The notes: generated by a model from the letters alone, not told the origin. Shown: positions 10,159 through 33,865, numbered from the stretch's first letter. The stretch: 64,000 nt of DNA from an uncultured Candidatus Poseidoniales archaeon (GCA_963997805.1 CAXEOD010000001.1:3635-67634); one strand, 5' to 3'. Translations and numbers: made by a program.

Positions 10159-10229
10159 TGCGCTCGCCGGGATTTGAACCCGGGCGAAGAGGTTGGAAAC
10201 CTCTGATGCTACCCCTACATCACGAACGC
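10159..10229 (-). tRNA. tRNA-Gly (anticodon UCC)
   Basis: Minus-strand read is GCGUUCG-UG-AUGU…; cloverleaf with a 7-bp acceptor stem, T-arm CCGGG-UUCAAAU-CCCGG, anticodon stem AGAGG/CCUCU and loop UU-UCC-AA; discriminator A; CCA not encoded. Confidence 0.8.
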
Positions 10230-10529: not shown

Positions 10530-12857
10530 ATGAAGAAAATTATTCTTATCAGCCTCATTTTGGTATTGTCAACTCTTGCCCTACCATTGGCTATTGCCCA
10601 GGAGGATGTGCTTCCTCCAGATGTGGACTATGAACCAGAAATGCGCATGACTAGACTATTCGCATATAGCCAAGATACACTATCTCCGGAACTAATTGAG
10701 CAGGCCGAAACTTCAAACCACGATTTCCCCGCAGGAGCTGTATCAGGGCCATCAAATGGGCCGACCATTACCACTCCTAGTTTCGTTCGGGATGCCCATA
10801 TTGGTAGTGAAGATTGGAATTTCTCACTTTGGGCAAGCGGGGATGGTCAAGTAAATATTGACCTCACCCTTTTCATTGATGGCACCGAATTAGACCAAGT
10901 AAATAGTGGTGGGATATCACTATCTGAAGTGAAACAGCGCATTGATTTCACGGGTGGAAATTTACCAGACAATATTTCAATTGACCAAACTCTTTCAATC
11001 CGCTGGACTGTTAATAGTGACGAGTTATTCCCAATCTTCAATTCTATCTCTTGCACAATCCACTGGGGCTCAGTTGAAACCCCGACAAATCTTACAATTT
11101 CTGCTGGGATGTACCAAATTGATGACCCTTACGTAGAGAATGAAGGAACACCATTCAGGGGTGAAGGAGAGAACTACTCACGCAGTGAAGTGGTTTGGGC
11201 TGTTCAGGCACGCTGGGCTATTGGCGAAGAACAACTGGAGAAGGAAACTCTAGTCTTACACGCTAATGACGGTGGCAAAGAGCTAATGCTTCAGCCCACC
11301 GGTGAGGGAATAAAATCAGACAATGGAATCTACCGCTGGGAAATTGAAGAATGGCATGACGGAGTAATTCTCTCAGCTCACGCGATGTGGAACGATACAT
11401 CTGGGAACCATGGAATGACAAATCAAGTCGTTGAAATGATGGACCCAAAGGGACCTAGTATCCTTTCTAGTGGACTCAAGGACATATTGTTTATCCTAAC
11501 AATACCAGTTCTCATTGGAGTAGGGTTTTGGCTCAAGGGTAGATACGAAACCCTTGAGGAGAAAGGAAAGGATACGGGACATGGACCTGGTAAAGAAGGT
11601 GATTTGAAACGCCTAGTTTTGGCAACTACATTTTTGATTGCTGGGATAAACAACGCTCTCATCCTCTATACTTTCCACACCCGTGAGTTGGGTGCTTCAG
11701 AAGATATCGTGATTCTACACCTGTGTTTACTTGCTTTTGCTCTTGGGGCTTTTGGCCCTATTTGGGGTGCGATTGCAGATAAATGGGGTCATCGTAAGCA
11801 ACTGATGACAGTTGCAATTATTGGAGCAAGTTTACTGATGATAACATTCCCATTCATGCCTCTTGAGGGTTACATCATTGTCTCAACTTTACAGGTTGCT
11901 CTATTCTCAGCGGTTCGGATGGGGGTTGCTGTTGGTACCGAATGGTATCCTGAACATAAAGGTGAGTTCCTTGGAGTCTTGTACGCTTTTGCCTCGTTTG
12001 CGGCAGCGATTGGATCAATGGTATGCAGTAAATTATATGTCACTTTATTGCCGATGAGCACCACATTTGCAATGCTTGGAATTGTAGGAATTTCAGTACC
12101 CGCACTACTGTTTGGCGCTTGGATGATAATGCAATTTGAAGGTGATGAGTTCTCCTGGCCAGTATGGATGCTGAAAGGTGGTAAGAAACCAGAGGCAGTG
12201 AAATTAACAATTTCCGAAAAATTGTCAATGTTCCGAGGCATGCTTCGTTTTGAAAGTAAATGGGCACTTCTCTGTCTATTAGGTGTAATCCTCGTTGCAA
12301 TCCCACGTGGAGCAGTTGTTCTAACTGCCCTACGTTATCTCGAAGTTGTCGGATTTGATGTTGATTTCACCGGCTTGTTAGAGGCATGGGCTGTGATTGC
12401 TGTCCTAATATTATACGCTGTAATTGGAAGAGTATGCGATGATCGTGGTCCACAAACTGTTCTACTTTGGTCAGCAGCAGCTTATGGAACGCTTTGGTCA
12501 ATCTTCAGCATTGGCCTTCCGCCAATGATAGCAGTGCTAATCTTTGTTGTTCCAATTTACCCAATGCTGTTGGTGTCTAATGATGCGCTAATGGCCAAGT
12601 TCACCAATGATGATGAGCGAAATCGTGGGATTGGAATGGCCAGCCTTGTTGCCTTCATGGGCCAATCAATCGGTATTCTTGCCGGTTTCTTCGTGCTGGG
12701 CTACCTGATATCCTCGGGTAAGACTGACATAGTCGCATACGAGACCTTCTACAGAGCTAATGTGCCTCTTTGGATTCTTGCAATTTGCTTCACATACTGG
12801 CTAGCTAAACGCATTGACGCTAGTGAGAATGTAATTGATGCTGAGATTAGCGAGTAA
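10530..12857 (+). CDS. Membrane transporter (MFS-like, about 12 TM) with a roughly 300-aa N-terminal extracellular domain
   Basis: Signal peptide, soluble N-terminal domain, then about 12 TM helices with MFS-like loops (e.g. …GAIADKWGHRKQLM…); RBS GGAGGAG 8 nt upstream of the start. Confidence 0.6.
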   Translation: MKKIILISLILVLSTLALPLAIAQEDVLPPDVDYEPEMRMTRLFAYSQDTLSPELIEQAETSNHDFPAGAVSGPSNGPTITTPSFVRDAHIGSEDWNFSLWASGDGQVNIDLTLFIDGTELDQVNSGGISLSEVKQRIDFTGGNLPDNISIDQTLSIRWTVNSDELFPIFNSISCTIHWGSVETPTNLTISAGMYQIDDPYVENEGTPFRGEGENYSRSEVVWAVQARWAIGEEQLEKETLVLHANDGGKELMLQPTGEGIKSDNGIYRWEIEEWHDGVILSAHAMWNDTSGNHGMTNQVVEMMDPKGPSILSSGLKDILFILTIPVLIGVGFWLKGRYETLEEKGKDTGHGPGKEGDLKRLVLATTFLIAGINNALILYTFHTRELGASEDIVILHLCLLAFALGAFGPIWGAIADKWGHRKQLMTVAIIGASLLMITFPFMPLEGYIIVSTLQVALFSAVRMGVAVGTEWYPEHKGEFLGVLYAFASFAAAIGSMVCSKLYVTLLPMSTTFAMLGIVGISVPALLFGAWMIMQFEGDEFSWPVWMLKGGKKPEAVKLTISEKLSMFRGMLRFESKWALLCLLGVILVAIPRGAVVLTALRYLEVVGFDVDFTGLLEAWAVIAVLILYAVIGRVCDDRGPQTVLLWSAAAYGTLWSIFSIGLPPMIAVLIFVVPIYPMLLVSNDALMAKFTNDDERNRGIGMASLVAFMGQSIGILAGFFVLGYLISSGKTDIVAYETFYRANVPLWILAICFTYWLAKRIDASENVIDAEISE

Positions 12858-12859
12858 CG

Positions 12860-13582
12860 CTACTCCGCTCTATCCGTTATGTGGGCTAGAGCCACATTGG
12901 TTTCCTGACCAGCAAGAAGTTGTTGCCAGGAATGGATACGATATAATTGAGAATTAATTGTGATTACTTCTTTCCCTATTACCTCAAAAGATTGTGGTGC
13001 AAGACCCATTCCAAGCCCTGTGGCTTTTTGAATAGCCTCTTTAACAACCCAAACCTGATTGGTTAGTGTGCTTGCTGTTTTGGGATTTTTATCCCATGCA
13101 ACCTCTAGTTTTGTCAATTCTTCTCCTGAAGCCATTAGTGGTAACAAATTACGTTGCCGACCAGAGTCTGGTTCTACATCAATTCCTACGGAAAGTTCAG
13201 TTGGGCCAATAATAGCAACGGCTAAGCCGCCGCTATGGGTAATAGAAATTGAAATAGGTTCTGGGCCAATTAGAATTGGCCTCCGGTATTCGTCCCTCTT
13301 GATTTGGTATTCTTTGATATCATATCCTTTTTGTTGTAATAGATAGCCAATAAGAAATCGGCCTGAAGCATGTTCTTCAGCACGCTTTGCAACTTTGAAT
13401 GACTGAGCCTCAATCGGGTCTACAAAATGAAGATTAGAGATATCGGGCATTGAATCGGTTGGTGAAGTGATTCGCGTCTTCATCCAGATAGCATGAAATT
13501 CTCCTTCAACCGTTTCTGGGAGATTCAAAGGAATGGGTTTTGAAGCCGGTTCCCACATCCCATTCACCAATTGGAAATTCAA
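12860..13582 (-). CDS. Sfp-type 4'-phosphopantetheinyl transferase
   Basis: PPTase motifs GIDVE…(Mg-binding) and W-VKEAIQKATG (WxxKEAxxK); lies immediately downstream of the megasynthase gene with a 4-nt gap. Confidence 0.8.
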   Translation of the reverse strand: MNFQLVNGMWEPASKPIPLNLPETVEGEFHAIWMKTRITSPTDSMPDISNLHFVDPIEAQSFKVAKRAEEHASGRFLIGYLLQQKGYDIKEYQIKRDEYRRPILIGPEPISISITHSGGLAVAIIGPTELSVGIDVEPDSGRQRNLLPLMASGEELTKLEVAWDKNPKTASTLTNQVWVVKEAIQKATGLGMGLAPQSFEVIGKEVITINSQLYRIHSWQQLLAGQETNVALAHITDRAE

Positions 13583-13586
13583 TTTT

Positions 13587-16500
13587 TCAATTGCGATTCA
13601 ACGAAAAGGATTCACCTTCTGAAATAGGAGCCATCCCCTTCAATCGCAACCCTTTCATGGAAACAACTGGTTTACCATCCTGATCCACAACCAAGCAATC
13701 GTGAATGGTGACCCCATCATCTTCTGCACCTCTCCTCACAGCGCGCATTCTTAGTGAATCTGTCTTTTCAGGAGTTCTAATCAATTCAAGCATCTCAATT
13801 CCAACAGGAAGAGATTGCAGACCATCTATTTCCATTGCTACCATCCCAGCATTCTGGAAACACGCTTCAATCAACATTGGTTGGGCTTCTAATGTAACAT
13901 CTCCAACTAAGAATTGATTTGTGTTTGCTAACTGATGCCGAGATAATGCAATTCCATCTGCTCCAAACATATCATCAATACTACATCCACCTAAAATCCC
14001 ACCATGTGATTGGAATCTTGGGCCATGGAAGAAGCGCTGATAAACAAAATCTGAACCTAAAACAACCCCGCCTCTTGAAGGAGTTCCAATTGACGGTAAC
14101 TTCAACAATCCTCGGTCGGCATCTCTCTTTAACATCCTCACTAATCCGTTGTGATGAATTGTTGGTTCTCCAAATATCTCACCAGATTTAGTCATCAAAT
14201 CTGATTCCAATCGACACTTTACCCATACATTTTCCGAATTTTGATGTGAGAATTCAGCAACTACTCTCAACTTTTGCTCTTGCTTCAGTAATTTAATCGG
14301 CAAGCCAAACCTAACTCCTGCAAATCCTATTACTGTACAAGGAGGCCACAATAATTGTGCCCCTTGTGAAAACATCTCAAGAGCCATTACCCCTGGGTGG
14401 TATGGTACGTTATCGATTGCATGGTCTTCTAGGAATGGGTAACTATTGACATCTATTGTGCACTCATATGAAAGTGTATCAAAGGGCTGGTGAGCAACAA
14501 CTTTGTCTACGAATGGAAAACGCTTGGCGTCAGCTAACAATGCTGAAACATCTGGCGGCAATCGTTGTGGTGGCTCTCGGTCAGAACCATCATCATTCAG
14601 AACTCCGAGATTCCCTGCAAGTACTACTCTGCGTTTACCACCACGCATCACTTCATCGACGAACAATGAAACACCCTGCTCAACTGAAACGGTCTCAATA
14701 CCTGCTTCCTCAAACACCCTTTCTATTGAGCCACGGGTTGCCATCCCAACATCTTGCCAACCAGTCCATGCCAAAGCAACGCCGTGTGGCTCTGATTCAA
14801 TGTGAGCGAGGCGTGACATTTCAGCATCAAGAATACAATTTGCTGCAGCATAATCAGTTTGCCCTCCATTCCCGAATCTCCCTGCAATTGAGGTAAAAGC
14901 ACAGCAATACCGTAATTGTGTGCTGTGGTCTTTAACAGCATTAACTAGAGATTGCCACCCATCAACTTTGACAGACATCACGTTGCTGAAGGTATCCCAA
15001 TCTTTGTCAGCAACCATCTTTGAATCTTCAATTCCTGCTCCGTGAATTATCCCAGTAATTGGGGAACGCTTCTTCTTCAACTTCTTGAGAACCTTTCTGA
15101 CCTGTTTACTAACTGTCACATCACAGGCATGATAGGTCGCAGTGTTACCACTTTCTTCTATATCTGAAAGGGTTTTATGAATGTTAATTGAGCGCTCAAT
15201 CTTTGACCATGCCTTTTCCCACTCAACGATTGTGACATTGCCAGACTTCGAATCGCGCTGCATCTGTTTTCGCAGTTCCATCTTCATTTGCTGCAACACT
15301 TCATCTGAGGCATCGGCTAAACTTGAAAGAGAGTCGTCCAGTTTAGTTCGTCCAAGTAATGCAAAGTGACAACCAATTCCTCGATTTGCTTGTGCTAGAC
15401 CAACAATACAGGCAGCAGTAACTCCAGAACCACCTCCGGATACAATGAACACATCTTCGGAATTTAACGACTGAGGCTCGGATTCATGAGGTTCATCATA
15501 GATGCATACCTGCCATCTTCTCCCATCACCATCAATCCCAAGTTCGCGGGGACCCATGTACTCAATTTCGCTGAGTATTGTCGCCGCCAATTTATCTGCG
15601 TTCACCAAAAGTTCAGGTGCAACATCAATTGCTCTAGCCCTGATGTTTGGTCTCTCTCTACCAAACGATTTGACGATTCCGTGGGCACCAGCCCCTAATG
15701 GATTGAATCGATATCCGCCATTCCCATGTCGTCCATCGAGTGCTGAAATTGAACAAACAATTCCATCACTACGGTTTGCCAACTTTGCATCTATTTGTTG
15801 CAGTACCCCAAATAGACCATGACATACCATCTGTGTTTGTTGCTGGCTAGTAACCTCAGCCCAAGCAATTCCTGCTAAAGTACAAGGAGCAGTATGAATA
15901 ACTCCTGCAATGTCTAAATCTGCAATGATTTCACCAAATTGAGAAAGGTGGTCTTGATTCCCGGGGTCTAGTCTGATGATGTCAATCCCCCCATCTTTTT
16001 CAATTTTAATCTTTGAAGTGATGCTAGGGTCTAACATCAACCTAACAGCTTCAGACCCACTTGATTCAAGTTGCTCACAGATAGCATTTCCAAGCCCCCA
16101 TGAATCATCAGTCACGATGATGTATGAACCGGCCATATCTATTGGGTGGGCTTCAGATTCATCGGCTTCCTCAACTTCAACTACCCAGCGCCGAACTGTA
16201 CTTTCAACAGGGTTTTCTGAAGGAGATGGTTCAACCACCTCTAACTCTGGTTTAGCAGAAAGAACTTCTTTTTCCTCTGGTTCAGAATCTACTGTTACCT
16301 CACTAACCACCGGTTCGCCTCCGCGCATTGAATCAATGTAGGATATCATGTCTGCAAGGGTTGGATAATCACGCAATTGGAATGATTCGTCTACAGGTAA
16401 GGAAAAATGTTCACGACAATCGGCCATAATCTCCGCTTGCTTGACTGTATCAATCCCCAATTCACCTTCTAAATCTTGATCTAGCTCAAGGAAATCTTCT

Positions 16501-19500
16501 GGATACCCTGTGTGCTTTACAACAATTGAAAGAACACCTGACTCAACATCACTATCAGTATTCTCTAGGCTAGGAGGATTACTCACAACCGACTCTTCGT
16601 CCACAGTACTACTCTGCAAGGGTTGCTCTTCTTGGGGGTTTTGTTGCTCTTCCCTTCCCTCACCCATACTGACAATGTAACTAATCATGTGATTTAGTGT
16701 TGGATGTTCACGTAACTGAAATGAATCATCAACTGGCAAGGAGAATGTCTCCCGTAAGTCGGCCATTATTTCTGCCTGCTTAACCGTGTCAATTCCTAAT
16801 TCGCCTTCTAAGTCTTGGTCAAGTTCAATGAAGTCAGTAGGGTAACCTGTGTGCTTCGCAACCGTTTCCACTACCTGTTGTTCAAGACCCTCTGGATGTT
16901 CTCTAGCTGTTATTTCTGGAACTGTTTGACTTGCTTTCCCAGCAGGTGGAGTCTCCTCAGAGAATTCCTCTTTAACTTCCTGTTTTGGTGTTTCAACAGA
17001 TTGTGATGGACCTGATTTCGGAGGTTTAGGTGCTGAAAGGGCGGAATCAGGTTGCGCATCTTGAGCAGAAACCTCCCATTCACTACCTTCAACGCCACCT
17101 ATCAATGATTCATCCGGGGCAATGTATGCAACTAATTTCCGCTTCAATAAGCGTAATTCAACATCGTCACCGGCTTGATTGATTGCCCATTTCACAACAC
17201 TTTCTCTATCAACTCTATTCAGGGTTCTAGCAATTCTCTTGAACATTGTAAGAGCAATTTGACTGCCAAATCCTGCTGCATGACGGAGCATGTATTCGAC
17301 ATCATATTCTCCACCTTCAGAAAGCCTGAGGTTTCCTAAGGCAGGGTCGGGTTGTTGGAAGTTAGCAATCGGTGGTAACCGTCCTGATGCAAGTCCATAT
17401 AATCCGGTGGCATCTTCAACGCCAACACCCATCGGATGGCCTGTGAATCCTTTGGTATTAGTGATGATTAAACTCTCAGCCGATTCCTTGAAAGTGCCTC
17501 TAAGAGATTCAATCTCAGCAGCAGCCGAACCGCCTCTCGGAGGGGTAAATGGTTCATGCGACATAAATGTCGTTTTGGGGGCAATCTCATGTCTATCGAT
17601 ACCCCAACGGTTTTCCATTTCAGTCACGAACTCGTCAAAAGTTGAGGCTACATGAGTGACATCTAGCCTTGTAGGATGGAAGGCTGAATTACCTATGTGA
17701 GCACCCAATAATTCAGCGTACGGAACTACTCCTCTCTCATCAGCGTGATTTGATTTCTCTATTACAAAGGCAGCCCCACCCATACCTAGCAACATACCGT
17801 TGCGTCTTACATCGAATGGTAACGCTACTTCTTCCACTACATTCCCCATTGAATGGGCACCCGCAGCAGCGAAACCTGCACCAATCCATTCCATTAAATC
17901 GTCACCAGTTGAATCGTCACCACTGATGACAATCACTCTGTCGCATCGGCCTGAATCTAACCAATCCTCTGCGATTGCAAAGGCTGCTGGAGTGGATGCA
18001 CATGCGTTGTTAATAGCCAAATTGGGGCCGCGAGCACCAATCCATTGAGCAAACTGTGCGTGACCCATTGTTAGAATTTGAAGTAAGAACCTTCTATCGA
18101 AAGTACCATTCTCGTCAGACCCATTGTTTAGTGCGTGCCTCATGGCCATAGCTATACCTGGAAATACAGAGGCAAAAACCACGCCAGTTCTTTCACGAAT
18201 CGAGTTAGGAAGATTCCATCCTCTTACTAACCTCTTACCAGCACTACTAACCTGTTCAACTGGTAGAAGTGGAAGGGCAGCATCTTTGAGGGCCTCCAAT
18301 CCAGCAGCAAATGAAAGTGTAGTGGAAACATCCATTGCCGCCACTATTTTTGGATCGATCCCATACTGCTCTGCCAAATCAAAGTAACCACCGACTCCTG
18401 CTAGTTGAGGTATCGTAGCAAAGGAATCACAGGGTACGAATTCAGCTCTGCCATCCGGGTGTTTAACAATTCTAACCATATTTTTGTCAAGTAAACGCTG
18501 CTTGACATCATCAGGTAATTCGGTGATAAAGTTCTCTCCAGCAATGATTCTCTCTAATGCATCTGGATCGAATATTTCATCCATTCCCGGAAGACCAAGG
18601 CTTACTCCGGTCACCACATAGGGATTGGTTCTTCGTTCAGCATGGGGGTCTGAAGATAACGCAACACTTGTTGCACCTTTCACCTTTTGAGAAACTGTGA
18701 ATCCACTCGGAGGAGATGTCACCCACTCGTTTAGGGCTGCTAAGGATGTTAATTTGCTAGCATCAGCCGGACCTGACACAGATGCTTCAGAAGTGATGCT
18801 TGCTAGTAAATCAGATAACGTGTCATCAGTTATTCCAAGTGCTGAAAGATGGAGTTCACCTTTGATGAGGCGAGCGGGATAACCAGTAATATCTGAAATG
18901 CGGCTTGCAAGGTAACCCTCTTTGTCAACAACCTGTTGGACAACATGGTGTCCACTATCATTCGAAATTGTTTGATGTTGAATATTCTGAGATGTTGTCG
19001 CTAATTGGCCATTTGATGAGCCATCCGGTAGCGGTCTAGCGCGAACCCGTAATTCTTCCATCTCTTCACTACTAGAATCACCGCTAACAATTCCACTTTT
19101 CTGCCACACCTCCAAAGGTCCAGCCCTGAACCCTTCAGTGAGCCGGTTTGAATCAACCGAGTGCATTGATGGTACCCGTCCTGAAAGAGCACATACTGCT
19201 AGTGATGAAAGGAATGATGCTACACCTCCAACCTTAGGGTGGTTTGTGTTCGTTACAACCTTTGATTGTTCATCAAGAATCTGCTCGGTAAAAAGGGCTA
19301 ATGCTCGCTTTGGCCCAACCTCAATGAATAGGCGGCCACCTCGGCTATACATCTCTTGAATCTGCCTAGTCCATTCTACTGCAGACGACATCTGTGGCGC
19401 CAATTGACTTAGGATTGCATCGTGAACGGTTTCTCCATCCTCAAGACTTTCGGGATAGAATTTACCATCATAGTTAGCCGTGATAGGGATTGAAGGCAAT

Positions 19501-22070
19501 GACAAATCCAAACCTTCGAGGAAGCGACGAAGCGGTTTGTTGGCAGGCGCAACAATACGTGAGTGGAATGCGTGACTCGTCTGAAGAGTAACGCATGGAA
19601 TGTTCATTTCACCAAACCGCTGAATTGCATCTTGCATCGGTTCTGTTTCACCTGCAATGACTGCCATCATCGGAGAATTCTTGTTAGCAGCAATAATGTA
19701 ACCATCAACCGAATCGATTACCTCCTGAATTTTCTCAAGTGGTGCAGTGACGCTTGCCATCAATCCCTTATCATTCACTTCCACGCTACCCATTTCAGTC
19801 CCGCGAGCGGCCGCAGCACGCAGTGCGTCGTGGAATTTCATTATTCCAGAGACCATCAGTGCGGCGTATTCTCCTAAACTGTGTCCAGCAACCATGTCAG
19901 GGTTGATTCCATGCTCACTTAGCAATCTGTAAATTGCTAAATCAGCCGTCAACATCGCTGGTTGAGTGAATTCTGTTTGTTTCAACTTCTCTTCTGCAAC
20001 TTTTGTCTGCTCTTCAGTGAGGTTATCGCGCAGAACAAACTCAGAAAGTTTCTCACCTGCAAGAATTTCAGCCATGGTTGAATCAGCTTCATCCCACGTT
20101 TCACCAATCACTTCAAACCTCTTTGAGAGGTCTAGCGTCATACCAACATATTGACTACCTTGACCTGGGAACATCTGTACCAATTTTGCGTCGGCTGGCA
20201 GTGCTTCCTCTTCAGTAATGAAAACCATCTGTTTTGCTAGGAATGTCCATTTTGAGGGGTCTGAGATATTCTCACTGAGTAAATCCATTCTCTTAGCTAA
20301 TTGTTTCCAATTAGTCGCGACAATTCCACAGCGAGCACCTTGTGGCTCAAAATCAGATGACAAATCCGAAAGGACTGCTGAAAGTCTACGTCCGGCTGGG
20401 TCATCATCGAAATTTGAAATTGATGATGAGAAGAGAGTTGATTGAACACGTTCAATTTCTGAGGTTAAAGATTCAATACCATCAGCATTCAGAAGCAAGA
20501 TTCCTCCTTCAATCTCAAGTAATTCTTGATGGTTCATTGAAGGTGTTGTAGTTGAATCTAGTACGCTTGCAGCCGTTGGAACTTGGAATTGAGAAGGTGA
20601 ACTATTAGACAAACTTGCAACTAGGGATTTGTGGTGTTCTGGGTCGTACTGCTCAAGTGCACAATGGAAATTTGTCCCTCCAAAACCAAACGCAGACACG
20701 CCTGCACGTCTAGGTGCTTTAGATTGTGGAATTGGCCAATCAGAAGAAATTGTAGGGACATAAAATGGAATTTCGTCCCAATTGACTGAAGTATTTGGTT
20801 GCTCAAACCCTGCAGATGGAGGTAAGGTTCTGTGGTGAAGTGCTAAACTCGCTTTCAGTAATCCAGCCATTCCAGCAGCTGCTTTAAGGTGACCAATTTG
20901 ACTTTTTACTGATCCTACTGCAACAAAATCACCAGCGCCACGGTCTGCAAATACGCCAGCAAGTGTTGACAACTCTGTTGCGTCTCCAACCTTAGTGCTC
21001 GTTCCGTGGGCCTCAATCAATTCTACTGAGGATGGAGAATATCCAGCCTGCTGATATGCCCGCATAACTGCCTGCTTTTGACCTCTAGTTGATGGGGCTG
21101 TGATTCCTTTTCCTCTGCCATCACTTGAGGAACCTATTCCGCGGATGACGCTGTAAATTGTATCACCATCTGCAATAGCATCCTCCAATCGCTTGAGAAC
21201 AACACAACCTGCACCTTCGCCCATCACGAATCCATTGGCACGTACATCAAAGGGCCGGGAATGAAGTGGGGATAGGGCACCGATAGCGCTGAATTTAGCG
21301 TATGTCCCAGGATCCATAGTTCGGTCGCTTGCACCACATAACATCAAATCCGTTTGGCCAGTTTGTAGCATCTGGCAAGCCCCAACTAAAGCGGCAAAGG
21401 TAGAGGCACAAGCAGCGTCAGCACTGAAATTTGGGCCTTGTAAGTCAAGCAGATTGGCCACTCGGCCAGCGACTACGTTGGCTAATTCTCCAGCCATCGT
21501 GTCTTCATCAATTCGTGGAGTACCGTCAGTGATTGAATCTTTAAATTCTTCACTGTTAGTTGCTGGCATACCGGCTTCAACTGCCTTGCGTGCAATTTGG
21601 TCTGCGTAAACACGCTTACTTGACATCACTCGGTTTTCTCCACCTAAGGCATTAGCGAATATCACGCCACAACGAGCGTTTGGGAGTTGTAACCGACTGT
21701 TTTCACCAATATAACCAGCATCCTCCAATGCTGCGGCTGAAACCTCAACCGCCCACAATTGAGTATCATCAATTTGGGAAAGCGTTCCGGGCGGTTGTTT
21801 CCAACGCCGCCAATCAAACTCAAAATCTTCAACAAAAGCCCCAATCTTTGAGTAAGTTTTGCCTTCTATTGCACTTCCAGGTTCACCTTCAACCCAAAAA
21901 TCGTCGGGGTTCCACCTATCGTGAGGTACTTCACGAATTGAAACTTTGGCATTCAACACATTATCCCAGAATGACTCAATATCTGGTGCGTCTGGAAAAA
22001 TAGCAGACTGCCCAACTATCGCAATCGGCGCGAAAGGATATTGGGGGACTTCGTCCAGTTGTTCGGTCAT
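13587..22070 (-). CDS. PUFA-synthase/type I PKS-like multidomain megasynthase (2827 aa): KS - AT - ACP-like - KS - ACP - ACP - KR - DH
   Basis: KS1 (aa 12-475; Cys in DAACAST, His in EAHGTST and KSQIGHLKAAAG); AT (aa 630-960; FPGQGSQY and GHSLGE); ACP-like (aa about 1040-1095; TGYP…LGITDD); KS2 (aa 1150-1615; NNACAST); two near-identical ACPs (aa 1730-1800 and 1845-1915; HTGYP…DLEGELGIDTVKQAEIMAD); KR (aa 1965-2480; VSGGGSGVTAACIVGLAQANRG, YAAANCILD); PKS-type DH (aa 2510-2810; LEDHAIDNVPYHPG). Confidence 0.9.
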   Translation of the reverse strand: MTEQLDEVPQYPFAPIAIVGQSAIFPDAPDIESFWDNVLNAKVSIREVPHDRWNPDDFWVEGEPGSAIEGKTYSKIGAFVEDFEFDWRRWKQPPGTLSQIDDTQLWAVEVSAAALEDAGYIGENSRLQLPNARCGVIFANALGGENRVMSSKRVYADQIARKAVEAGMPATNSEEFKDSITDGTPRIDEDTMAGELANVVAGRVANLLDLQGPNFSADAACASTFAALVGACQMLQTGQTDLMLCGASDRTMDPGTYAKFSAIGALSPLHSRPFDVRANGFVMGEGAGCVVLKRLEDAIADGDTIYSVIRGIGSSSDGRGKGITAPSTRGQKQAVMRAYQQAGYSPSSVELIEAHGTSTKVGDATELSTLAGVFADRGAGDFVAVGSVKSQIGHLKAAAGMAGLLKASLALHHRTLPPSAGFEQPNTSVNWDEIPFYVPTISSDWPIPQSKAPRRAGVSAFGFGGTNFHCALEQYDPEHHKSLVASLSNSSPSQFQVPTAASVLDSTTTPSMNHQELLEIEGGILLLNADGIESLTSEIERVQSTLFSSSISNFDDDPAGRRLSAVLSDLSSDFEPQGARCGIVATNWKQLAKRMDLLSENISDPSKWTFLAKQMVFITEEEALPADAKLVQMFPGQGSQYVGMTLDLSKRFEVIGETWDEADSTMAEILAGEKLSEFVLRDNLTEEQTKVAEEKLKQTEFTQPAMLTADLAIYRLLSEHGINPDMVAGHSLGEYAALMVSGIMKFHDALRAAAARGTEMGSVEVNDKGLMASVTAPLEKIQEVIDSVDGYIIAANKNSPMMAVIAGETEPMQDAIQRFGEMNIPCVTLQTSHAFHSRIVAPANKPLRRFLEGLDLSLPSIPITANYDGKFYPESLEDGETVHDAILSQLAPQMSSAVEWTRQIQEMYSRGGRLFIEVGPKRALALFTEQILDEQSKVVTNTNHPKVGGVASFLSSLAVCALSGRVPSMHSVDSNRLTEGFRAGPLEVWQKSGIVSGDSSSEEMEELRVRARPLPDGSSNGQLATTSQNIQHQTISNDSGHHVVQQVVDKEGYLASRISDITGYPARLIKGELHLSALGITDDTLSDLLASITSEASVSGPADASKLTSLAALNEWVTSPPSGFTVSQKVKGATSVALSSDPHAERRTNPYVVTGVSLGLPGMDEIFDPDALERIIAGENFITELPDDVKQRLLDKNMVRIVKHPDGRAEFVPCDSFATIPQLAGVGGYFDLAEQYGIDPKIVAAMDVSTTLSFAAGLEALKDAALPLLPVEQVSSAGKRLVRGWNLPNSIRERTGVVFASVFPGIAMAMRHALNNGSDENGTFDRRFLLQILTMGHAQFAQWIGARGPNLAINNACASTPAAFAIAEDWLDSGRCDRVIVISGDDSTGDDLMEWIGAGFAAAGAHSMGNVVEEVALPFDVRRNGMLLGMGGAAFVIEKSNHADERGVVPYAELLGAHIGNSAFHPTRLDVTHVASTFDEFVTEMENRWGIDRHEIAPKTTFMSHEPFTPPRGGSAAAEIESLRGTFKESAESLIITNTKGFTGHPMGVGVEDATGLYGLASGRLPPIANFQQPDPALGNLRLSEGGEYDVEYMLRHAAGFGSQIALTMFKRIARTLNRVDRESVVKWAINQAGDDVELRLLKRKLVAYIAPDESLIGGVEGSEWEVSAQDAQPDSALSAPKPPKSGPSQSVETPKQEVKEEFSEETPPAGKASQTVPEITAREHPEGLEQQVVETVAKHTGYPTDFIELDQDLEGELGIDTVKQAEIMADLRETFSLPVDDSFQLREHPTLNHMISYIVSMGEGREEQQNPQEEQPLQSSTVDEESVVSNPPSLENTDSDVESGVLSIVVKHTGYPEDFLELDQDLEGELGIDTVKQAEIMADCREHFSLPVDESFQLRDYPTLADMISYIDSMRGGEPVVSEVTVDSEPEEKEVLSAKPELEVVEPSPSENPVESTVRRWVVEVEEADESEAHPIDMAGSYIIVTDDSWGLGNAICEQLESSGSEAVRLMLDPSITSKIKIEKDGGIDIIRLDPGNQDHLSQFGEIIADLDIAGVIHTAPCTLAGIAWAEVTSQQQTQMVCHGLFGVLQQIDAKLANRSDGIVCSISALDGRHGNGGYRFNPLGAGAHGIVKSFGRERPNIRARAIDVAPELLVNADKLAATILSEIEYMGPRELGIDGDGRRWQVCIYDEPHESEPQSLNSEDVFIVSGGGSGVTAACIVGLAQANRGIGCHFALLGRTKLDDSLSSLADASDEVLQQMKMELRKQMQRDSKSGNVTIVEWEKAWSKIERSINIHKTLSDIEESGNTATYHACDVTVSKQVRKVLKKLKKKRSPITGIIHGAGIEDSKMVADKDWDTFSNVMSVKVDGWQSLVNAVKDHSTQLRYCCAFTSIAGRFGNGGQTDYAAANCILDAEMSRLAHIESEPHGVALAWTGWQDVGMATRGSIERVFEEAGIETVSVEQGVSLFVDEVMRGGKRRVVLAGNLGVLNDDGSDREPPQRLPPDVSALLADAKRFPFVDKVVAHQPFDTLSYECTIDVNSYPFLEDHAIDNVPYHPGVMALEMFSQGAQLLWPPCTVIGFAGVRFGLPIKLLKQEQKLRVVAEFSHQNSENVWVKCRLESDLMTKSGEIFGEPTIHHNGLVRMLKRDADRGLLKLPSIGTPSRGGVVLGSDFVYQRFFHGPRFQSHGGILGGCSIDDMFGADGIALSRHQLANTNQFLVGDVTLEAQPMLIEACFQNAGMVAMEIDGLQSLPVGIEMLELIRTPEKTDSLRMRAVRRGAEDDGVTIHDCLVVDQDGKPVVSMKGLRLKGMAPISEGESFSLNRN

Positions 22071-22079
22071 ATTACCACC

Positions 22080-22955
22080 TCAATCTGAGATACTGTCTGG
22101 TACCATAATGCTAGAATATCCAGCATCAACGTGAATTATTTGTCCTGTGACACCTGAAGACAAGGGTGAGGCTAACCAAGTTGCACACCCTGCAACATCT
22201 TCCTGTGTGACGTTTCGACGTAATGGTGAATTCCTCTCTACATGGGCGAGAATGTCATCAAAGCCAGGAATACCCCCTGCCGCTAAGGTTTTGATCGGCC
22301 CTGATGAAATTGCATTGACTCGGTGACCATCTGGGCCAACATGATTTGCAAGTTCACGAGTCCACGCTTCTAATGCTGCTTTTGCTATACTCATCACACC
22401 ATAGTTTGGCACCCATCTAGTTGAGGCCGCATAGGTTAGAGTGATTGTTGAAGAGTTGGGAGCTAGATGTGGCAAAGCGTAGCGCATCACTCTTTGTAGT
22501 GAATGAGCGCTGATTGTCATAGCAGTGTTCATCGGGTCATTTTCAACGAACAACACTGGTCGGTCAAAACATGGGCGTGGAGCAAATCCGATAGCATGAA
22601 TGACAATATCTGCTTTTGCACCCGGGTTGGCATTTTGCCACTCTGTGAAAAATTCGGCTGTCAATTCATTGGTTTCAACATCAATTGGATAAAATGCTTC
22701 AATAGCATCTAGTTTCTCTTTTAGTTGAAATACACGGCTCATAAATCGCTTCTGAAAACCAAGTATTAACTTACATCCAGCCGCTGCTAATTGCTCGCAT
22801 ATAGCCCACGCAATACTGTCTTCGCTTGCTACACCAAATACTAGTGCAGTTTTTCCCTTTAGTTCCAACATAAAAGCACCTGTTCCTACCAACATCGGTT
22901 CGCCGGCGAAGACGCCTTCAAGACCTTTGCCCACCCTGTGAGACAACAGCGTCAT
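22080..22955 (-). CDS. FabI-like enoyl-(acyl-carrier-protein) reductase (SDR), probable trans-acting ER for the megasynthase
   Basis: LKGKTALVFGVASEDSIAWAICEQLAAAG (FabI N-terminal signature) and catalytic Y-x6-K YGVMSIAKAALEAW; 10-nt gap to the megasynthase. Confidence 0.8.
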   Translation of the reverse strand: MTLLSHRVGKGLEGVFAGEPMLVGTGAFMLELKGKTALVFGVASEDSIAWAICEQLAAAGCKLILGFQKRFMSRVFQLKEKLDAIEAFYPIDVETNELTAEFFTEWQNANPGAKADIVIHAIGFAPRPCFDRPVLFVENDPMNTAMTISAHSLQRVMRYALPHLAPNSSTITLTYAASTRWVPNYGVMSIAKAALEAWTRELANHVGPDGHRVNAISSGPIKTLAAGGIPGFDDILAHVERNSPLRRNVTQEDVAGCATWLASPLSSGVTGQIIHVDAGYSSIMVPDSISD

Positions 22956-24027: not shown

Positions 24028-24654
24028 TCACGATTCTTCTTCTTCTTCTACTTCAAGGGCGGCTTCTTCAGGCTCTGAATCAACTTTTTCTTCGGTCCCA
24101 TTAGATTTTACCAGAACTTCAACGAATAGACCCTCAGCATCAAATCTTGTACCCCAATGTGTGGCCGCCATCTCAACCAAATTTTTGTGTCTAGCACCAA
24201 GAGCAATTCCAAGCCCATTTGAAAAGAATAGTAAATCCATATCGTGCAACTTATCACTAATACGAATACACTCAAGTCGCTCGTCTTCCTCAAATTCCGG
24301 ATAGTATTCTGAAACCTGATCAGTTCGTAGTGGTTGACCATAGTCAAACGAAACTACGAGAGGACCCTTCTCAGTGGTAATCCCTTCATCAGGCCTGCCT
24401 AATCGGAGTAACATTTCACGAGCCGCTGCCCAAGCAATCTCTGAATGATTTGTGCCATGTACTACCAGCCTTCCCTCTTCGTCAACTAGCAGAGTTGCAC
24501 GTGGATTCTTAAGAGCCAGTATCACATACTTACCACTCTTCTTTCCTCCTAGAGTTTTGATGACCTCCTCGGCCTCAAATGGTTGAGGGGCTGTGAACCT
24601 GACCAATTGGTTCTCTACCCTGACTTTGATAGCACTTCGACGACCCATTCTCAC
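24028..24654 (-). CDS. Divergent TATA-box-binding protein (TBP)-like protein with two repeats and an acidic C-terminal tail
   Basis: Two roughly 85-aa repeats that line up with TBP repeats (IKVRVENQLVRF…PRATLLVDEEGRLVVHGTNHSE…AAREML ; PLVVSFDYGQP…YYPEFEEDERLECIRISDKLHDMDLLFFSNGLGIALGARHKNLVEMAA) compared with canonical …IENIVAS…[20 protein letters not shown]… / …[13 protein letters not shown]…[19 protein letters not shown]…; followed by an EEEEEES tail. Confidence 0.45.
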   Translation of the reverse strand: MRMGRRSAIKVRVENQLVRFTAPQPFEAEEVIKTLGGKKSGKYVILALKNPRATLLVDEEGRLVVHGTNHSEIAWAAAREMLLRLGRPDEGITTEKGPLVVSFDYGQPLRTDQVSEYYPEFEEDERLECIRISDKLHDMDLLFFSNGLGIALGARHKNLVEMAATHWGTRFDAEGLFVEVLVKSNGTEEKVDSEPEEAALEVEEEEES

Positions 24655-25442: not shown

Positions 25443-26648
25443 TCAACCTAGAATTGATGAATCTTTAGCTAAATCTTTGGTGATATTCTTCTGATGACTC
25501 TCTAAAGTCCCACCACCAATTTCGAGGAGTTTTGCGTCACGCCACAATCTCTCAACCACATATTCGCCAACATAACCGTAGCCACCCATTACTTGCATTG
25601 CTCGGTCAGCAATATCTTTTGCTAGTGTTGTTGATACCAACTTTATCCCATCGGAATCCAACCGATTGCCGCTCTGCTCTACATCCATTTGTCTAGCTAC
25701 ATTGTAGAGATATGCCTCCATTCCACGCCATTCAGCGAATGATTGGCCGATGTAACGTTGTATCTGACCGAAATCTCTGATTGGCCGTCCAAATGCTTCT
25801 CTCTCAGAAGCATAGCGATTCATTTCTTTGACTGAGCGGCGAGCAATTCCTAGACTCATCGCCGCTAAAGTAAGCCGTTCTAATTCCAGATTACGCATCA
25901 TATGAATCATTGATTCACCGCACGCGCCAACGAGACTATCAGGGCCAACTACACAGTCATCATAGACTAACTCCGCAGTGTTGGAGCCTCGCATTCCAGT
26001 TTTGTCAACAATCTTTTGACCAACTGAAAAACCAGGTGAGTCTGCGAACACAAGGAAGGTCGATATCTCAGCCCTACCGTTTTCATTCACGCCTGTTTTA
26101 GCATAAGTCCAAACAACATCACAAGGTGTACCTTCTTCATCGATGCAGCCATTAGTTATCCACATTTTACGTCCGTTGATGACCCAATTACCGTCATCTC
26201 TTTGCTGAGCAGTAGTGCTCATTGACATCACATCTGTACCAACATCTGGTTCAGACATTGCCATTGCTCCTATCCACTCGCCACTGCAAACTTTGGGAAG
26301 TATCTCTTGCTTCTGAGTTGAATTACCATTACGTGAAAGGTTGTTGACAAATAGCATACTATGGGCAAGATAAGCTAATGCAAAGCCTGGGTCACTATAG
26401 GATAATTCCTCGTGAACAATTGCCGCGGCTAATGCGTCCATTCCAGCCCCACCGTACTCCTCTGGAGCAGTAATTCCAAGAAGTCCTAGTTCACCCATAT
26501 CACGTAATAATTGAAGATTGAACTTCTCATCTCGGTCAAACTCAAGTGCTTGTGGCTCAACTTCTGAACTGACCCAGTCACGGACCATCTCTCTTAGCAT
26601 CGCATGTTCTTCAGTCGGGTTGGTGATGTCAAGCGTCTTGTAATCCAC
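25443..26648 (-). CDS. Acyl-CoA dehydrogenase
   Basis: 401 aa with the ACAD N/M/C domain pattern (…WITNG…, …GGYGYVGEY…ERLWRDAKLLEIGGGT…). Confidence 0.85.
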   Translation of the reverse strand: MDYKTLDITNPTEEHAMLREMVRDWVSSEVEPQALEFDRDEKFNLQLLRDMGELGLLGITAPEEYGGAGMDALAAAIVHEELSYSDPGFALAYLAHSMLFVNNLSRNGNSTQKQEILPKVCSGEWIGAMAMSEPDVGTDVMSMSTTAQQRDDGNWVINGRKMWITNGCIDEEGTPCDVVWTYAKTGVNENGRAEISTFLVFADSPGFSVGQKIVDKTGMRGSNTAELVYDDCVVGPDSLVGACGESMIHMMRNLELERLTLAAMSLGIARRSVKEMNRYASEREAFGRPIRDFGQIQRYIGQSFAEWRGMEAYLYNVARQMDVEQSGNRLDSDGIKLVSTTLAKDIADRAMQVMGGYGYVGEYVVERLWRDAKLLEIGGGTLESHQKNITKDLAKDSSILG

Positions 26649-26679: not shown

Positions 26680-29600
26680 TCACTTGTTCTCTCGCACCCA
26701 ATCCTGAAGTTGTTGCAGTGACCATCCTTGGTCAAAGTAACCTTGAATCGTTGCATCATCCCAGAATGGGAATAGACGCTTTGCTCGGTCCATCTTTGAA
26801 TCCCCTCCAGCAGGAGGCCCATCACCATACCCAGGTGGACCACTACTCTGAGTGGCATAGTCAGCACTACCGCCAGTTTCAGCGCGAGCAGGCCCTCTTG
26901 ACATCGGAGTTACAGCCTCGCCAGCAGGCAAATAATCTTCATCCTCAACGAAGAAATCACCCTCTTCTTCGGATTCTCTTCCTACGTACATCATGATACC
27001 AATTACTAATGCGACAAGAACTAAAATTACAGCAGCAATGCCACCATAAAGTGCCCAGTTGGTTTCAGTACCTCCAGAACTACCTGCTTCACGAATATGG
27101 AATGAAGGTGACTCACCTAATTCATTACCAGCAGCATCGTGTATTTTGAACATAACAGATGAAACAGGTTGCGGGAAAGCTTCAACTTGTACTCTACAAA
27201 TATTATTCATTGCAGGAGTAAAAGTTGTACCACATGAGTAGTTGAAGTTGCTTAATTGGCGGCCTTCAATCACCGTGAAGATTTGTAATTCTAATTCTCC
27301 GGAATCAGTACCAATATTGGTTACATCAACGAGCAGTTCGAATGGTTGTCCTGCCTCTGGTTGACCAGGTGAAATGATAATTTTGTTGATAACGAATTCA
27401 GCTTCCTTGTAGGTTAATGAGTAATCACCACCCTCAACGGCAGCACCAAATTGTCCACCAAGAGCAATACCGTTTCCTGCTGAATCGGTGCCTGTAACCC
27501 AGAACCTCAAATCAACGCCATCAAGGTCTGATGGTAATTCATGGCCAGGCCACAAATCAACACAGTTACCAATTGCACGATTTGGTGATGCTGACAAATC
27601 AAGTTGAAGATCAGCAGACTGCCAAGCATCTGGGAAAGTCGAGCGATATTGACTCCAATTCAAATCGTGCTCGTAGTACATCCAGTTGATTTTCATTGAA
27701 CCTGCTACTAGTTTCTGTCTCTCCTCTATTGCGAAATTGATGTTGACGCAATGAATTGTTGAAGATGGCAGAATATCATTATACTCTTCAGCATCAGAGC
27801 CAGCAGCCAATTGCCATGAATTCCAGACTACAGTGGGTGCCTCATTGTCGACCTTCACATAGAAGGTTTTGTCACCAGTCATTGAGAAATCGTTGGCCCC
27901 TGCTGGCAATGTGTCCTCACAATCTGGATTGTTTACATCCGTTGAGTCGCATACTCTGAAGACATATCGATATTCGTTGGTTGATAATGCCGCTGGAATA
28001 ACCAAGTCAAATGTTCCATTTTCAAAATTATAGTAGAAGACTTCTGTAGCTGCAGCCACATATCCGCTTCCAGGATTATCGGATTCACCACCAGGATAAA
28101 CTGGAGTTCGAGTCAATTCCATTGTCATTGGAATTTCAGGTTGAACGTCAATTCCTGACTCTAATGCAGCCTTGAAGAAGTATTTACCATGGAATTGTAA
28201 TAAATCACCGGGGCGAACAAAGCCACCATCTTGAGAACCAACTGAGTTTGTGATGAAACCTGAAGTATCATCAATAGTTAGAGATTCACTATCAAACTTC
28301 AAACCAGAAGAATATGCCAATAGTTGGATATAGCGACTGCTTGAAAGTTTGCTCTCACCATTCTCTGGATCCAAATCCTTCATGAAAATTTCAGGAGTTA
28401 TCACTCCCTGCAGATTAACCACACCCCAACGCATACGTATCGGTATGTCAACTAAGAATTCTGTCTCAAACGGGTCAATTAGTGCGGTGCCATCCAAGCG
28501 TGTTATACGTGGTCCGATTCCATCCACCTCAGCATTCAAAATATCTGCTGAAGTACTTTCACTCCAAGAAGTTCCGTTGCGAGGTGAGAAGTAAACCACG
28601 AGGTCATTACTAATTGCAGGGTTAAGATCAACTTTGACGTAATCTACATCTCTCCAACCGTTATCGTCAGTACCCTCAACCAACAAATGGTACACATTCC
28701 CAGCATACACTGATTTGTTGAACTCTGTCAAGGGGTTTCCACCAGCATCGCCAACATGGAATGAGTAAATTCCCGGAGGGCGAGATTGCCTGCCGATGTA
28801 GGTAATCAAATCTGATATGAAACCTCCATCTCCGCCATCGATTGAATTACCGGAAATATCAGTACCAGAAACAAACAAACTCGTGCGAGGAGCTGGTTCG
28901 CCGTTGGGGACTGTCAAACCGGTTTGACGGTCGTCAATGCAATCATTTGTTGGTGGACAAGCCAAGTTTGAGATGAAGTAAGTTGTATTTCCATTAACAT
29001 CAGTTGAATCCTCATCAAGAGGTACCGACTGATATTCACTCAAATCTGGAATTCTATCTCCGTTAATATCGTGTTGTGCTTCAACCCAGTAATTCAAAAC
29101 GAATGAAGGGGGAGTCTCAGGAATATCCCTAACCATGACTCGGAACTTTTGGTTAGCCTGAGGTGGTATCCAAGTATCGTCCGCGAGATCTCTCCAGTTC
29201 TGTAATCCCATCACGCTGATGTTGATGAGATAGGGTGAATACTGGTCAATGTAAACTGTCATTGGAATGCCACATTCTACATCAGGTGAAAGGGAAACAG
29301 GAGGGCAATTAGTATCGCCACCAGTATAATTGTCCATGCGTAGCCGATAGGTGTCGTTTCCTGCTGAAAGTTCTGGTATTGCAGGTTGCCACGAGAAGTT
29401 ACCCCCGAGGGTACCTGGGAGTCGGTCAATTTCGTTCCATTGGCTAATATTTGAGTCATTCTGCAATTCAAAGACAAGGGTGTAAGATGCAGGATCAGGA
29501 GCTACTCCTAAGTCCTCAAAACGCACAGTCCCTTCCAAAGTCAACTCATTATTGCTGTGAACATTCTCTAAGTCATTCTGAACTGCATCTGCTTGGTTGT

Positions 29601-33403: not shown

Positions 33404-33865
33404 ATGACGAATAAGCCCTTCACGACTGAGCCAGTTGTACTACTTCAGGAAGTTTTCCCTGGGGATACCAATGCCTACAACACCCTTTTTGGAGGGCGTT
33501 TACTCTCAATAATGGATACCGCTGCTGGGATTGTCTCTAGTAAATTCGCCCATCGTGAGTTCGTTACAGTCAGCATTGATTCCCTCAAATTCAAACGACC
33601 TGCATACCAAGGGGATTTGATTGAAGTTACTGCACAAGTGGTTTTCACCTCAACCCACACTGCCGGATGTCATGTTATTGCTAGACGACTAGACCGCAGT
33701 GTTTGGGAATCTGAAGAAATCTGTACTGGCTTTTTTTTCATGGTTGCAATTGATAATCAAATGAGGCCGATACCAATTCCACAGTTTGTCCCAAAAAGTG
33801 ACGAAGAAAAGAAACTGTGGAATTCAGCAGAGACTGCACGTGATGCAATGAAGGCATCTGACTAA
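33404..33865 (+). CDS. Hotdog-fold acyl-CoA thioesterase (YciA/acyl-CoA hydrolase family)
   Basis: …GDTNAYNTLFGGRLLSIMDTAAGIV… and …GDLIEVTAQVVFTSTHTAGCHV… are typical of acyl-CoA thioester hydrolases. Confidence 0.75.
   Translation: MTNKPFTTEPVVLLQEVFPGDTNAYNTLFGGRLLSIMDTAAGIVSSKFAHREFVTVSIDSLKFKRPAYQGDLIEVTAQVVFTSTHTAGCHVIARRLDRSVWESEEICTGFFFMVAIDNQMRPIPIPQFVPKSDEEKKLWNSAETARDAMKASD

Follow-up and report, generated by a model that had tools for sequence, protein, structure and literature searches.

Acyl carrier protein (ACP), phosphopantetheinyl transferases (PPTases) and malonyl transacylase are missing from most archaea, and where they are present they were acquired sporadically (PMC3533463). 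A pathway invoked for archaeal fatty acids is independent of ACP: it is linked to coenzyme A (CoA), thiolase-based and non-decarboxylative, and involves neither ACP nor PPTase (Lombard et al. 2012; PMC3533463). Marine Group II archaea (MGII, the order Poseidoniales) have no gene for glycerol-1-phosphate dehydrogenase and do have one for glycerol-3-phosphate dehydrogenase, and "mixed" membranes have been proposed for them (PMC6461757, PMC6962369, PMC13037920). Two of these sources also report that MGII possess homologues of PlsC and a putative pathway for fatty acids (PMC6461757; PMC6962369, citing Villanueva 2017), and the fatty-acid or polyketide synthase (PKS) potential of the group is already noted in general terms. 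Here we analysed a window, i.e., the whole stretch of 64,000 nucleotides (nt), from an uncultured Candidatus Poseidoniales archaeon (GCA_963997805.1, CAXEOD010000001.1:3635-67634). Three of its genes, at positions 12860-22955, encode a megasynthase, a FabI-type enoyl-ACP reductase and an Sfp-type PPTase. Like the CoA-linked pathway, this system may be invoked for archaeal fatty acids, but it is predicted to be ACP/PPTase-dependent and malonyl-fed.

Two described systems come close to this one. PfaA (TIGR02813), from bacterial and thraustochytrid polyunsaturated fatty acid (PUFA) synthases, shares with the MGII megasynthase a head made of a ketosynthase (KS) and an acyltransferase (AT), tandem ACPs with a GIDxxK motif, and a tail made of a ketoreductase (KR) and a PKS-type dehydratase (DH). 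It is also iterative and malonyl-fed, as predicted for the MGII protein, and has a dedicated Sfp-type PPTase (PfaE-like). The MGII protein differs from PfaA by an extra degenerate ACP and a FabF-like second ketosynthase (KS2) between the AT and the ACPs, by threonine instead of serine in the ACPs, and by the absence from the window of PfaB, PfaC and PfaD partners and of a FabA-type DH. Its reductase is of the FabI type, a short-chain dehydrogenase/reductase (SDR), whereas PfaD is of the FMN/TIM-barrel type. The bacterial type II fatty-acid synthase (FAS) is the other relative: KS2, AT, KR and the trans-acting enoyl reductase (ER) of MGII are FabF-, FabD-, FabG- and FabI-like, respectively, and the predicted reductive cycle is the same. 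In MGII, however, one polypeptide combines all of these except the ER, a PKS-type DH takes the place of FabZ/FabA and an Sfp-type PPTase that of AcpS, and threonine is the carrier residue.

The three genes were found as open reading frames (ORFs) exactly where an earlier note on this DNA had placed them, all on the minus strand:

22080-22955, minus strand: FabI-type enoyl-ACP reductase, 291 amino acids (aa), adh_short_C2 domain, predicted to act in trans
13587-22070, minus strand: megasynthase, 2827 aa, in the order KS1-AT-degenerate ACP-KS2-ACP-ACP-KR-DH
12860-13582, minus strand: Sfp-type 4'-phosphopantetheinyl transferase, 240 aa, ACPS and 4PPT_N domains

Only 9 nt separate the FabI gene from that of the megasynthase, and 4 nt separate the latter from the PPTase gene. 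The ATG of the megasynthase is preceded by a Shine-Dalgarno-like site (GAGGTG). Given the small gaps and the ribosome-binding-like site, the trio looks like one operon. The PPTase gene starts with TTG and has an in-frame ATG eight codons downstream. The 181-nt gap 5' of the FabI gene could be the site of a promoter.

This bacterial-type operon is a core trait of the order Poseidoniales. When one genome of each GTDB species was scanned, 15 loci with 69-96% identity emerged, all in archaeal metagenome-assembled genomes (MAGs); the titles of 12 name Poseidoniales or Thalassarchaeaceae, those of the other three only "Methanobacteriota archaeon". In the protein database, more than 120 clusters (at the 90% identity level) have the same architecture, with identity down to 54%, and carry names such as Thalassarchaeum, Poseidoniaceae and Poseidonia. 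The FabI, megasynthase and PPTase genes were adjacent in all sufficiently long loci (L001-L020 and L024), which according to their source names cover both Thalassarchaeaceae and Poseidoniaceae. The order TBP-TatD-FabI-megasynthase-PPTase was kept in all loci where it could be judged, including the deepest relative found, which lies on a contig of 3.0 Mb. A block comprising a gene for a 260-aa protein, the TATA-binding protein (TBP) gene and tatD stood directly upstream of the operon in the divergent Poseidoniia loci examined. Synteny that recurs over both MGII families points to a core function, unlike that of a sporadic secondary-metabolite cluster. The TBP of this block is divergent (24028-24654, minus strand, 208 aa): Pfam matches it with E 3e-4, and a profile of eight orthologues matches the TBP of P. 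woesei with E 7e-10. Together with PCNA, Cdc6/Orc1, Nop5 and a PPAT-DUF359 fusion, it marks the window as archaeal, which agrees with the host proposed in the earlier note. The proposal that a complete ACP-dependent set (a PPTase, a megasynthase with KS, AT, ACP, KR and DH, and a trans FabI-type ER) resides in a genuine archaeal genome was borne out, and the suggested lineage-specific pathway turned out to be conserved across Poseidoniales. The finding is broader than that note had anticipated, being a core trait of the whole order, and stranger, with threonine carriers and two intact ketosynthases.

The domains of the megasynthase are the following:

20625-22028, minus strand: KS1, a PKS/PfaA-type ketosynthase (residues 15-482; Cys221, His355, His394)
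19182-20174, minus strand: acyltransferase (residues 633-963; GQGSQ, GHSLGE with Ser731, HAFH)
18726-18938, minus strand: degenerate ACP remnant between AT and KS2 (about residues 1045-1115; LGITDDT at the attachment site)
17196-18653, minus strand: KS2, a divergent FabF-like ketosynthase (residues 1140-1625; Cys1357, His1505, His1545)
16674-16880, minus strand: ACP1 (residues 1731-1799; Pfam PP-binding 4e-16; motif DLEGELGIDTVKQAEIM)
16335-16541, minus strand: ACP2 (about residues 1844-1912; second PP-binding stretch; motif DLEGELGIDTVKQAEIM)
14691-16193, minus strand: ketoreductase with its structural subdomain (about residues 1960-2460; NADPH-binding GGGSGVT; Tyr2407 in YAAAN)
13638-14510, minus strand: PKS-type double-hotdog dehydratase (residues 2521-2811; His2550 in HxxxNxxxxP; ExxxQ at 2735-2739)

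We judged Pfam matches against the curated cutoffs and NCBIfam matches against the cutoffs of the models. Motif conservation was read from the translation aligned with 13 diverse homologues. As the domain annotation proposed in the earlier note implied, Pfam recovered the KS, the AT, two PP-binding domains, the KR, PS-DH, the PPTase and the FabI-like protein above the curated cutoffs. The catalytic motifs of the megasynthase are intact and invariant among homologues down to 54% identity, so that KS, AT, ACP, KR and DH lie on a single polypeptide with their catalytic residues in place, as in iterative type I FAS/PKS-like enzymes. KS1 matches ketoacyl-synt (3.6e-71, 240 bits) and Ketoacyl-synt_C (1.7e-40, 138 bits), and its motifs DAACAS, EAHGTST and SQIGH show no variation across the aligned homologues. 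The AT matches Pfam Acyl_transf_1 (5e-36, 125 bits) and NCBIfam FabD (2.7e-55), again with invariant motifs. HAFH is the classical signature of malonyl-CoA-specific ATs in PKSs, and its presence indicates that this AT would be malonyl-specific. The two PP-binding domains reach 59.5 bits in Pfam. The KR (Pfam 3.6e-28, 99 bits) lies in a region that matches positions 1754-2238 of the PfaA model (E 1.4e-50) and has conserved motifs; an I-E-D stretch in place of the B-type L-D-D suggests that it may produce a FAS-like 3R alcohol. The DH, whose motifs are also conserved, matches PS-DH above the cutoff (6.5e-9, 36 bits) and PKS_DH_N slightly short of it (3.8e-5).

KS2 is only weakly seen by Pfam, and its match to NCBIfam fabF (1e-31) falls short of the cutoff. 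It aligns with the FabF of PDB 4ddo (E 1e-23) with the cysteine, both histidines and the lysine in register, in agreement with the second Cys-containing KS that had been proposed. Because the FabF catalytic residues are aligned and invariant in the family, KS2 is predicted to be a real condensing enzyme. We considered an inactive chain-length factor and rejected it, since the whole Cys-His-His triad is retained and conserved. Between AT and KS2 lies a segment of another kind. Of the three carrier-like domains proposed earlier, two stand as Pfam-detected ACPs (with Thr, not Ser), and the first is a degenerate remnant. The remnant was not detected by Pfam and matches the family ACP profile with an hhalign probability of 96% (E 4e-9). 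Its attachment position holds no conserved Ser or Thr; the column varies in the alignment between D, G, P, A, E and S. For want of a conserved hydroxyl residue there, we rejected it as a working ACP. Some bacterial relatives, in contrast, have a true Thr-ACP at this place (P0144, P0146, P0154). Since these relatives keep a normal-looking ACP between AT and KS2, the ancestral layout probably comprised two modules, KS-AT-ACP followed by KS-ACPn-KR-DH.

The two proteins encoded on either side of the megasynthase are also well conserved. The reductase matches Pfam adh_short_C2 (2e-67, 227.5 bits) and aligns over its full length with the FabI of T. thermophilus (PDB 1ulu, E 5e-54), with the Tyr-x6-Lys pair in register. 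Its top NCBIfam models are all FabI equivalogs, none of which reaches its cutoff (best 225.6 vs 391 bits). By these alignments it is a divergent member of the FabI family. Of the three proteins it varies least (72-98% identity among MGII loci), and its gene neighbours that of the megasynthase in all of them. The PPTase matches ACPS (1.6e-8) and 4PPT_N (1.1e-6), both above the cutoffs, with 29.1 and 35.0 bits for the pair. It has the two-domain fold of Sfp-type enzymes, the metal-binding GIDxE (GIDVEP), which provides the Mg-binding D-x-E, and WxxKEAxxK (WVVKEAIQK), which contains W-x-x-K-E-A; these motifs are invariant across four divergent loci. The PPTase gene was directly downstream of the megasynthase in 14 of the 15 loci that reach past the 3' end of the latter (13 archaeal, 2 bacterial). 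In one bacterial locus (L021) it lies one gene further downstream, behind a fused acetyl-CoA carboxylase gene.

The megasynthase belongs to a family that extends beyond MGII. An exhaustive search with KS2 and ACP retrieved 964 clusters (50% identity) at E ≤ 1e-30. Among the top 150, the majority of the full-length members, with about 2.8-3.4 thousand residues, have KS2 near residues 1000-1500. By source name, members come from Myxococcota, Acidobacteriota, Chloroflexota (Oscillochloris, Chloroploca, Caldilineaceae), Planctomycetota (Brocadiae), Calditrichota, Bacteroidota (Saprospiraceae) and Gammaproteobacteria (Woeseiaceae), and from one Heimdallarchaeota MAG. They are annotated generically, as "SDR family NAD(P)-dependent oxidoreductase" or "type I polyketide synthase", and among them we found no member with a described function. 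The protein of the window has the features of the family: a FabF-like KS2 with Cys-His-His between AT and the ACPs, the ACP motif LGIDTVKQAE, and a PPTase encoded downstream. The bacterial proteins with two KS and Thr-type ACPs (e.g., MBN2383391.1 and that of Oscillochloris fontis) share with it the length, the domain order, KS2, the ACP motif and the downstream PPTase, with 36-50% identity in KS2 and ACP. Some of them retain a functional-looking ACP between AT and KS2, which is degenerate in MGII. The other difference concerns the upstream gene: the bacterial loci have a gene for an acyl-CoA-dehydrogenase (ACAD)-like protein of about 550 aa in the slot where all MGII loci have FabI.

Three bacterial loci (L021, L022, L023) have a recurrent cassette made of this ACAD-like gene, the megasynthase and the PPTase. 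An acetyl-CoA carboxylase is encoded near the cassette in two of the three, once as a fused protein of 1862 aa, and genes for electron-transferring flavoprotein (ETF) and an Fe-S oxidoreductase in one of the three. The best match of the cassette ACADs is acryloyl-CoA reductase, which together with ETF catalyses the reducing direction. These neighbours are consistent with an enoyl-reducing partner and a supply of malonyl-CoA, and we infer that FabI in MGII is a non-orthologous replacement of the bacterial enoyl-reducing partner. In a rough neighbour-joining tree of KS2, the MGII sequences formed one clade nested among Thr-type bacterial sequences. This topology fits a single ancient acquisition from bacteria, in line with the horizontal acquisition that the earlier note suggested as one option. 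The Heimdallarchaeota member is a 3234-aa protein with two KS and Ser-type ACPs (L025:10001-19705, GCA_026702845.1); its gene neighbours encode an Arf/Ras-like GTPase, acetyl-CoA carboxylase subunits and a FabH-like protein. ACP-dependent synthesis may thus occur in a second archaeal lineage (Asgard).

The most unusual trait of the family is the residue at the carrier site. Neither ACP of the window has the conserved serine of the D-S-[LIV] motif; both read GIDTVK. Alignment to solved carriers (the PigH didomain and a Streptomyces ACP) sets this threonine on the phosphopantetheinylated serine of the D-S motif, at Thr1762 in ACP1 (codon ACG, 16785-16787) and at Thr1875 in ACP2 (codon ACA, 16446-16448). 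Threonine occupies the position in 97-99% of the LGIDTVKQAE-type motifs: 275 of 283 motifs in the 120 closest MGII proteins, 412 of 425 in 150 cluster representatives of the wider family, and 537 of 540 in 115 bacterial relatives. Thr-type motifs are the only ones present in 140 of the top 150 relatives. Serine at this site is sporadic: it arises in at least two separate places within the MGII clade, it is found in the Heimdallarchaeota protein, and one protein mixes both residues (S-T-S over its three ACPs). The number of ACPs varies from one to four in MGII and from two to six in bacteria, and the motif is preserved throughout, as it is in tandem ACPs that function. In the family alignment of the ACP domain, 33 of 80 columns are invariant and none of them holds another serine. 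We consider it likely that the threonine is the phosphopantetheine attachment site, because it aligns with the serine, the two residues swap, there is no other invariant serine, a PPTase is co-encoded and the motif is kept in duplicated ACPs.

The operon probably encodes a self-contained, iterative, ACP-dependent synthase of the FAS/PKS type, making a largely saturated straight acyl chain that is released in trans and serves, most plausibly, membrane or structural lipids. The presence of one AT, one KR and one DH implies iterative use. Since the reductive set is full and lacks a FabA-type isomerase, such a chain is the simplest product. The scheme that follows is inferred as regards the pantetheinylation of Thr, the way in which the ketosynthases share their work, the saturation of the product, its release and its role in the cell. 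The Sfp-type PPTase would convert both tandem ACPs to the holo form via Thr1762 and Thr1875, and the single, putatively malonyl-specific AT would load malonyl units. KS1 (PKS-type) and KS2 (FabF-like) would split the condensations, probably with initiation and short chains on one side and elongation on the other, as with the two KS types in PUFA synthases. The KR and the PKS-type DH would lead to a trans-2-enoyl intermediate, whose thioester the separately encoded FabI-type reductase would saturate in trans. Repeated cycles would extend the saturated chain, and a thioesterase (TE) or acyltransferase encoded elsewhere would release it. One candidate for chain release is a 4HBT hotdog thioesterase about 10.4 kb upstream of the operon (33404-33865, plus strand), which adjoins the conserved block in L019 and L020 (79% and 69% identity). 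A biotin carboxylase (36916-38277) could contribute to the supply of malonyl-CoA; its carboxyltransferase and biotin carboxyl carrier protein partners were not found in the 64-kb window.

Several points weigh against this interpretation. We know of no report of a natural Thr-linked phosphopantetheine, and Ser-to-Thr mutants of the E. coli ACP are not known to be modified. The DH carries ExxxQ and HxxxN instead of the usual DxxxQ and HxxxG. The megasynthase stops shortly past the DH, with no TE, reductase or condensation domain for release within it, and the 64 kb of the window yielded no acyltransferase. Given its sub-cutoff scores for the FabI equivalogs, the reductase could have a different substrate, and hydroxy, enoyl or partly unsaturated products may arise if it skips cycles. 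Surveys of biosynthetic gene clusters (BGCs) class such loci as type I PKS (T1PKS), the second-commonest class in marine archaeal genomes (PMC10304266).

This last point is also what favours reading the enzyme as a type I PKS of secondary metabolism, whose product would be a bioactive polyketide, such as a polyene or polyol, instead of a primary lipid. The lack of a TE domain would suit such an enzyme, as would the spread of the wider family over many bacterial phyla (by which we do not imply its presence across whole phyla). We nevertheless regard a polyketide as an unlikely product. The housekeeping synteny (TBP, TatD, PCNA) is fixed in both MGII families and the deeper relative, the reductive set is full and includes a trans ER, no tailoring, regulator or resistance genes lie around the operon, and the bacterial loci pair the megasynthase with acetyl-CoA carboxylase and ETF/ACAD, i.e., with partners like those of primary metabolism. 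The earlier note had favoured a synthase of "secondary" lipids, of the PUFA, olefin or heterocyst-glycolipid type, which would make polyunsaturated or hydroxylated long chains or hydrocarbons. PfaA is indeed the best NCBIfam model, the tandem ACPs have a PUFA-like GID[S/T][IV]K motif, and the order KS-AT-ACPn-KR-DH is that of PfaA except for the inserted KS2. Yet, the 865.2 bits of the PfaA match are spread over three stretches and stay below the cutoff of 1010.1. PfaC (the KS-chain-length factor and FabA-type DH pair), PfaD (the FMN reductase) and PfaB are absent among the window ORFs of at least 90 aa, and no Pfa partners occur in the flanks of more than 20 related loci. Methylene-interrupted cis double bonds have no known route in the absence of a FabA-type dehydratase/isomerase, and the reductase is FabI-type instead of PfaD-type. 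With the score under the cutoff and the partners missing, we rejected the identification as a PUFA synthase, and the broader assignment to secondary lipids has in our view little chance of being correct.

A third possibility concerns the carriers of the presumed acyl-chain synthase. If threonine cannot be pantetheinylated, intermediates might be carried by CoA or by a stand-alone ACP; alternatively, the pathway might be crippled. The tandem domains would then be structural or regulatory. To our knowledge all characterised carrier proteins use serine, and the first ACP-like domain of the same protein has clearly decayed. It is hard to reconcile with inert carriers, however, that the motif around the threonine is invariant in a domain copied one to six times, that a PPTase with intact motifs is co-encoded, that Ser and Thr exchange at exactly that position, even inside one protein, and that no stand-alone ACP gene occurs within the window or the related loci. 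We hence deem inert carriers improbable. Lastly, genes of bacterial type on an archaeal contig might result from contamination or chimeric assembly. The GC content of the window is even (0.41-0.47), with no step at the operon, and the operon is enclosed by archaeal genes: TBP is about 1 kb upstream, two genes from FabI, and PCNA about 2.8 kb downstream. The archaeal flanks recur at both junctions in at least 16 assembled loci with 54-96% identity from different depositors, i.e., the 15 from the genome-contig scan and further ENA/NCBI contigs. On this composition, and on synteny repeated in independent archaeal assemblies, we rejected a chimeric or contaminant contig, which would be an extremely improbable explanation; the archaeal origin of the contig assumed in the earlier note thus holds.

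As a tentative proposal, possible and still rather doubtful, we suggest that a large family of megasynthases of undescribed function, one of which is universal among the most abundant archaea of the surface ocean, puts phosphopantetheine on threonine by means of dedicated PPTases, its members being the first natural carriers of this kind, and that the MGII member is a de novo source of acyl chains for bacterial-like or chimeric membranes. In the literature searched, from which most subscription journals were absent, we found no description of the operon architecture, of its family, of the FabI/ACAD swap or of the Thr carriers. An ACP-dependent synthase fixed in the order that dominates the planktonic archaea of the surface ocean is an exception to the absence of ACP from most archaea. 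The operon is a concrete, clonable candidate for the supply of fatty acyl chains, which makes the mixed-membrane hypothesis testable without culture. If the threonine, which recurs in hundreds of sequence clusters from many phyla, is truly modified, the chemistry of phosphopantetheinylation would be extended, and pairs of Thr carriers and PPTases could be orthogonal to the Ser-based ones of synthetic biology. Because its members are annotated generically as SDR oxidoreductase or type I PKS, the family is probably entered among the secondary-metabolite clusters in genome-mining surveys.

Neighbouring genes had been put forward as suppliers of substrate or handlers of product, but most of them either belong to ordinary conserved synteny or have no consistent link to the operon. 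An ACAD (25443-26648, 401 aa) lies four genes away. Of the four divergent loci examined, L016, L019 and L020 lack it and L024 has it on the opposite strand. Its orthology to the bacterial cassette ACADs, which have about 550 aa and with which it shares only 29% identity, is not supported. Another is a gene encoding 775 aa (10530-12857, plus strand), in which a signal peptide and an extracellular domain (about 320 aa) precede a major facilitator superfamily (MFS) transporter. It converges on the PPTase gene with a 2-nt gap, and its position is kept in Thalassarchaeaceae loci, with a shorter or displaced version in two deeper loci. This convergent orientation and partial conservation speak against its role as a handler. 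Nor do we assign the conserved block upstream to the pathway: TatD is a housekeeping nuclease, the 208-aa protein is the divergent TBP, the 1947-aa ORF encodes a secreted surface protein anchored at its C-terminus, and the 260-aa protein has no detectable relatives in the PDB.

Other features of the window touch the pathway less closely. Rfam at gathering thresholds found tRNA-Gly(TCC) alone in the whole 64-kb window (10159-10229), and did not recover the RNase P-like RNA mentioned in the earlier note. An ORF of 1947 aa (26680-32523, minus strand) has a signal peptide, a C-terminal membrane anchor and no Pfam domain, as a surface protein. There are three more very large ORFs:

53965-59217, plus strand: very large ORF with PA14 and laminin-G domains
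5784-8201, plus strand: very large ORF with thrombospondin-type repeats
45255-47906, minus strand: very large ORF

All four probably encode cell-surface proteins. The window also encodes a class I fructose-bisphosphate aldolase ("Glycolytic", PF00274, E 3e-126; 48588-49607, minus strand) and a GlpX-type fructose-bisphosphatase (50028-50981, minus strand). These gluconeogenic enzymes are of bacterial/eukaryotic type and may be imported genes. The gene at 43857-44900 (minus strand) fuses a cytidylyltransferase-like (PPAT) domain to DUF359, which we take to be the family of archaeal dephospho-CoA kinases. The fusion would act in CoA biosynthesis, CoA being the phosphopantetheine donor for the PPTase.

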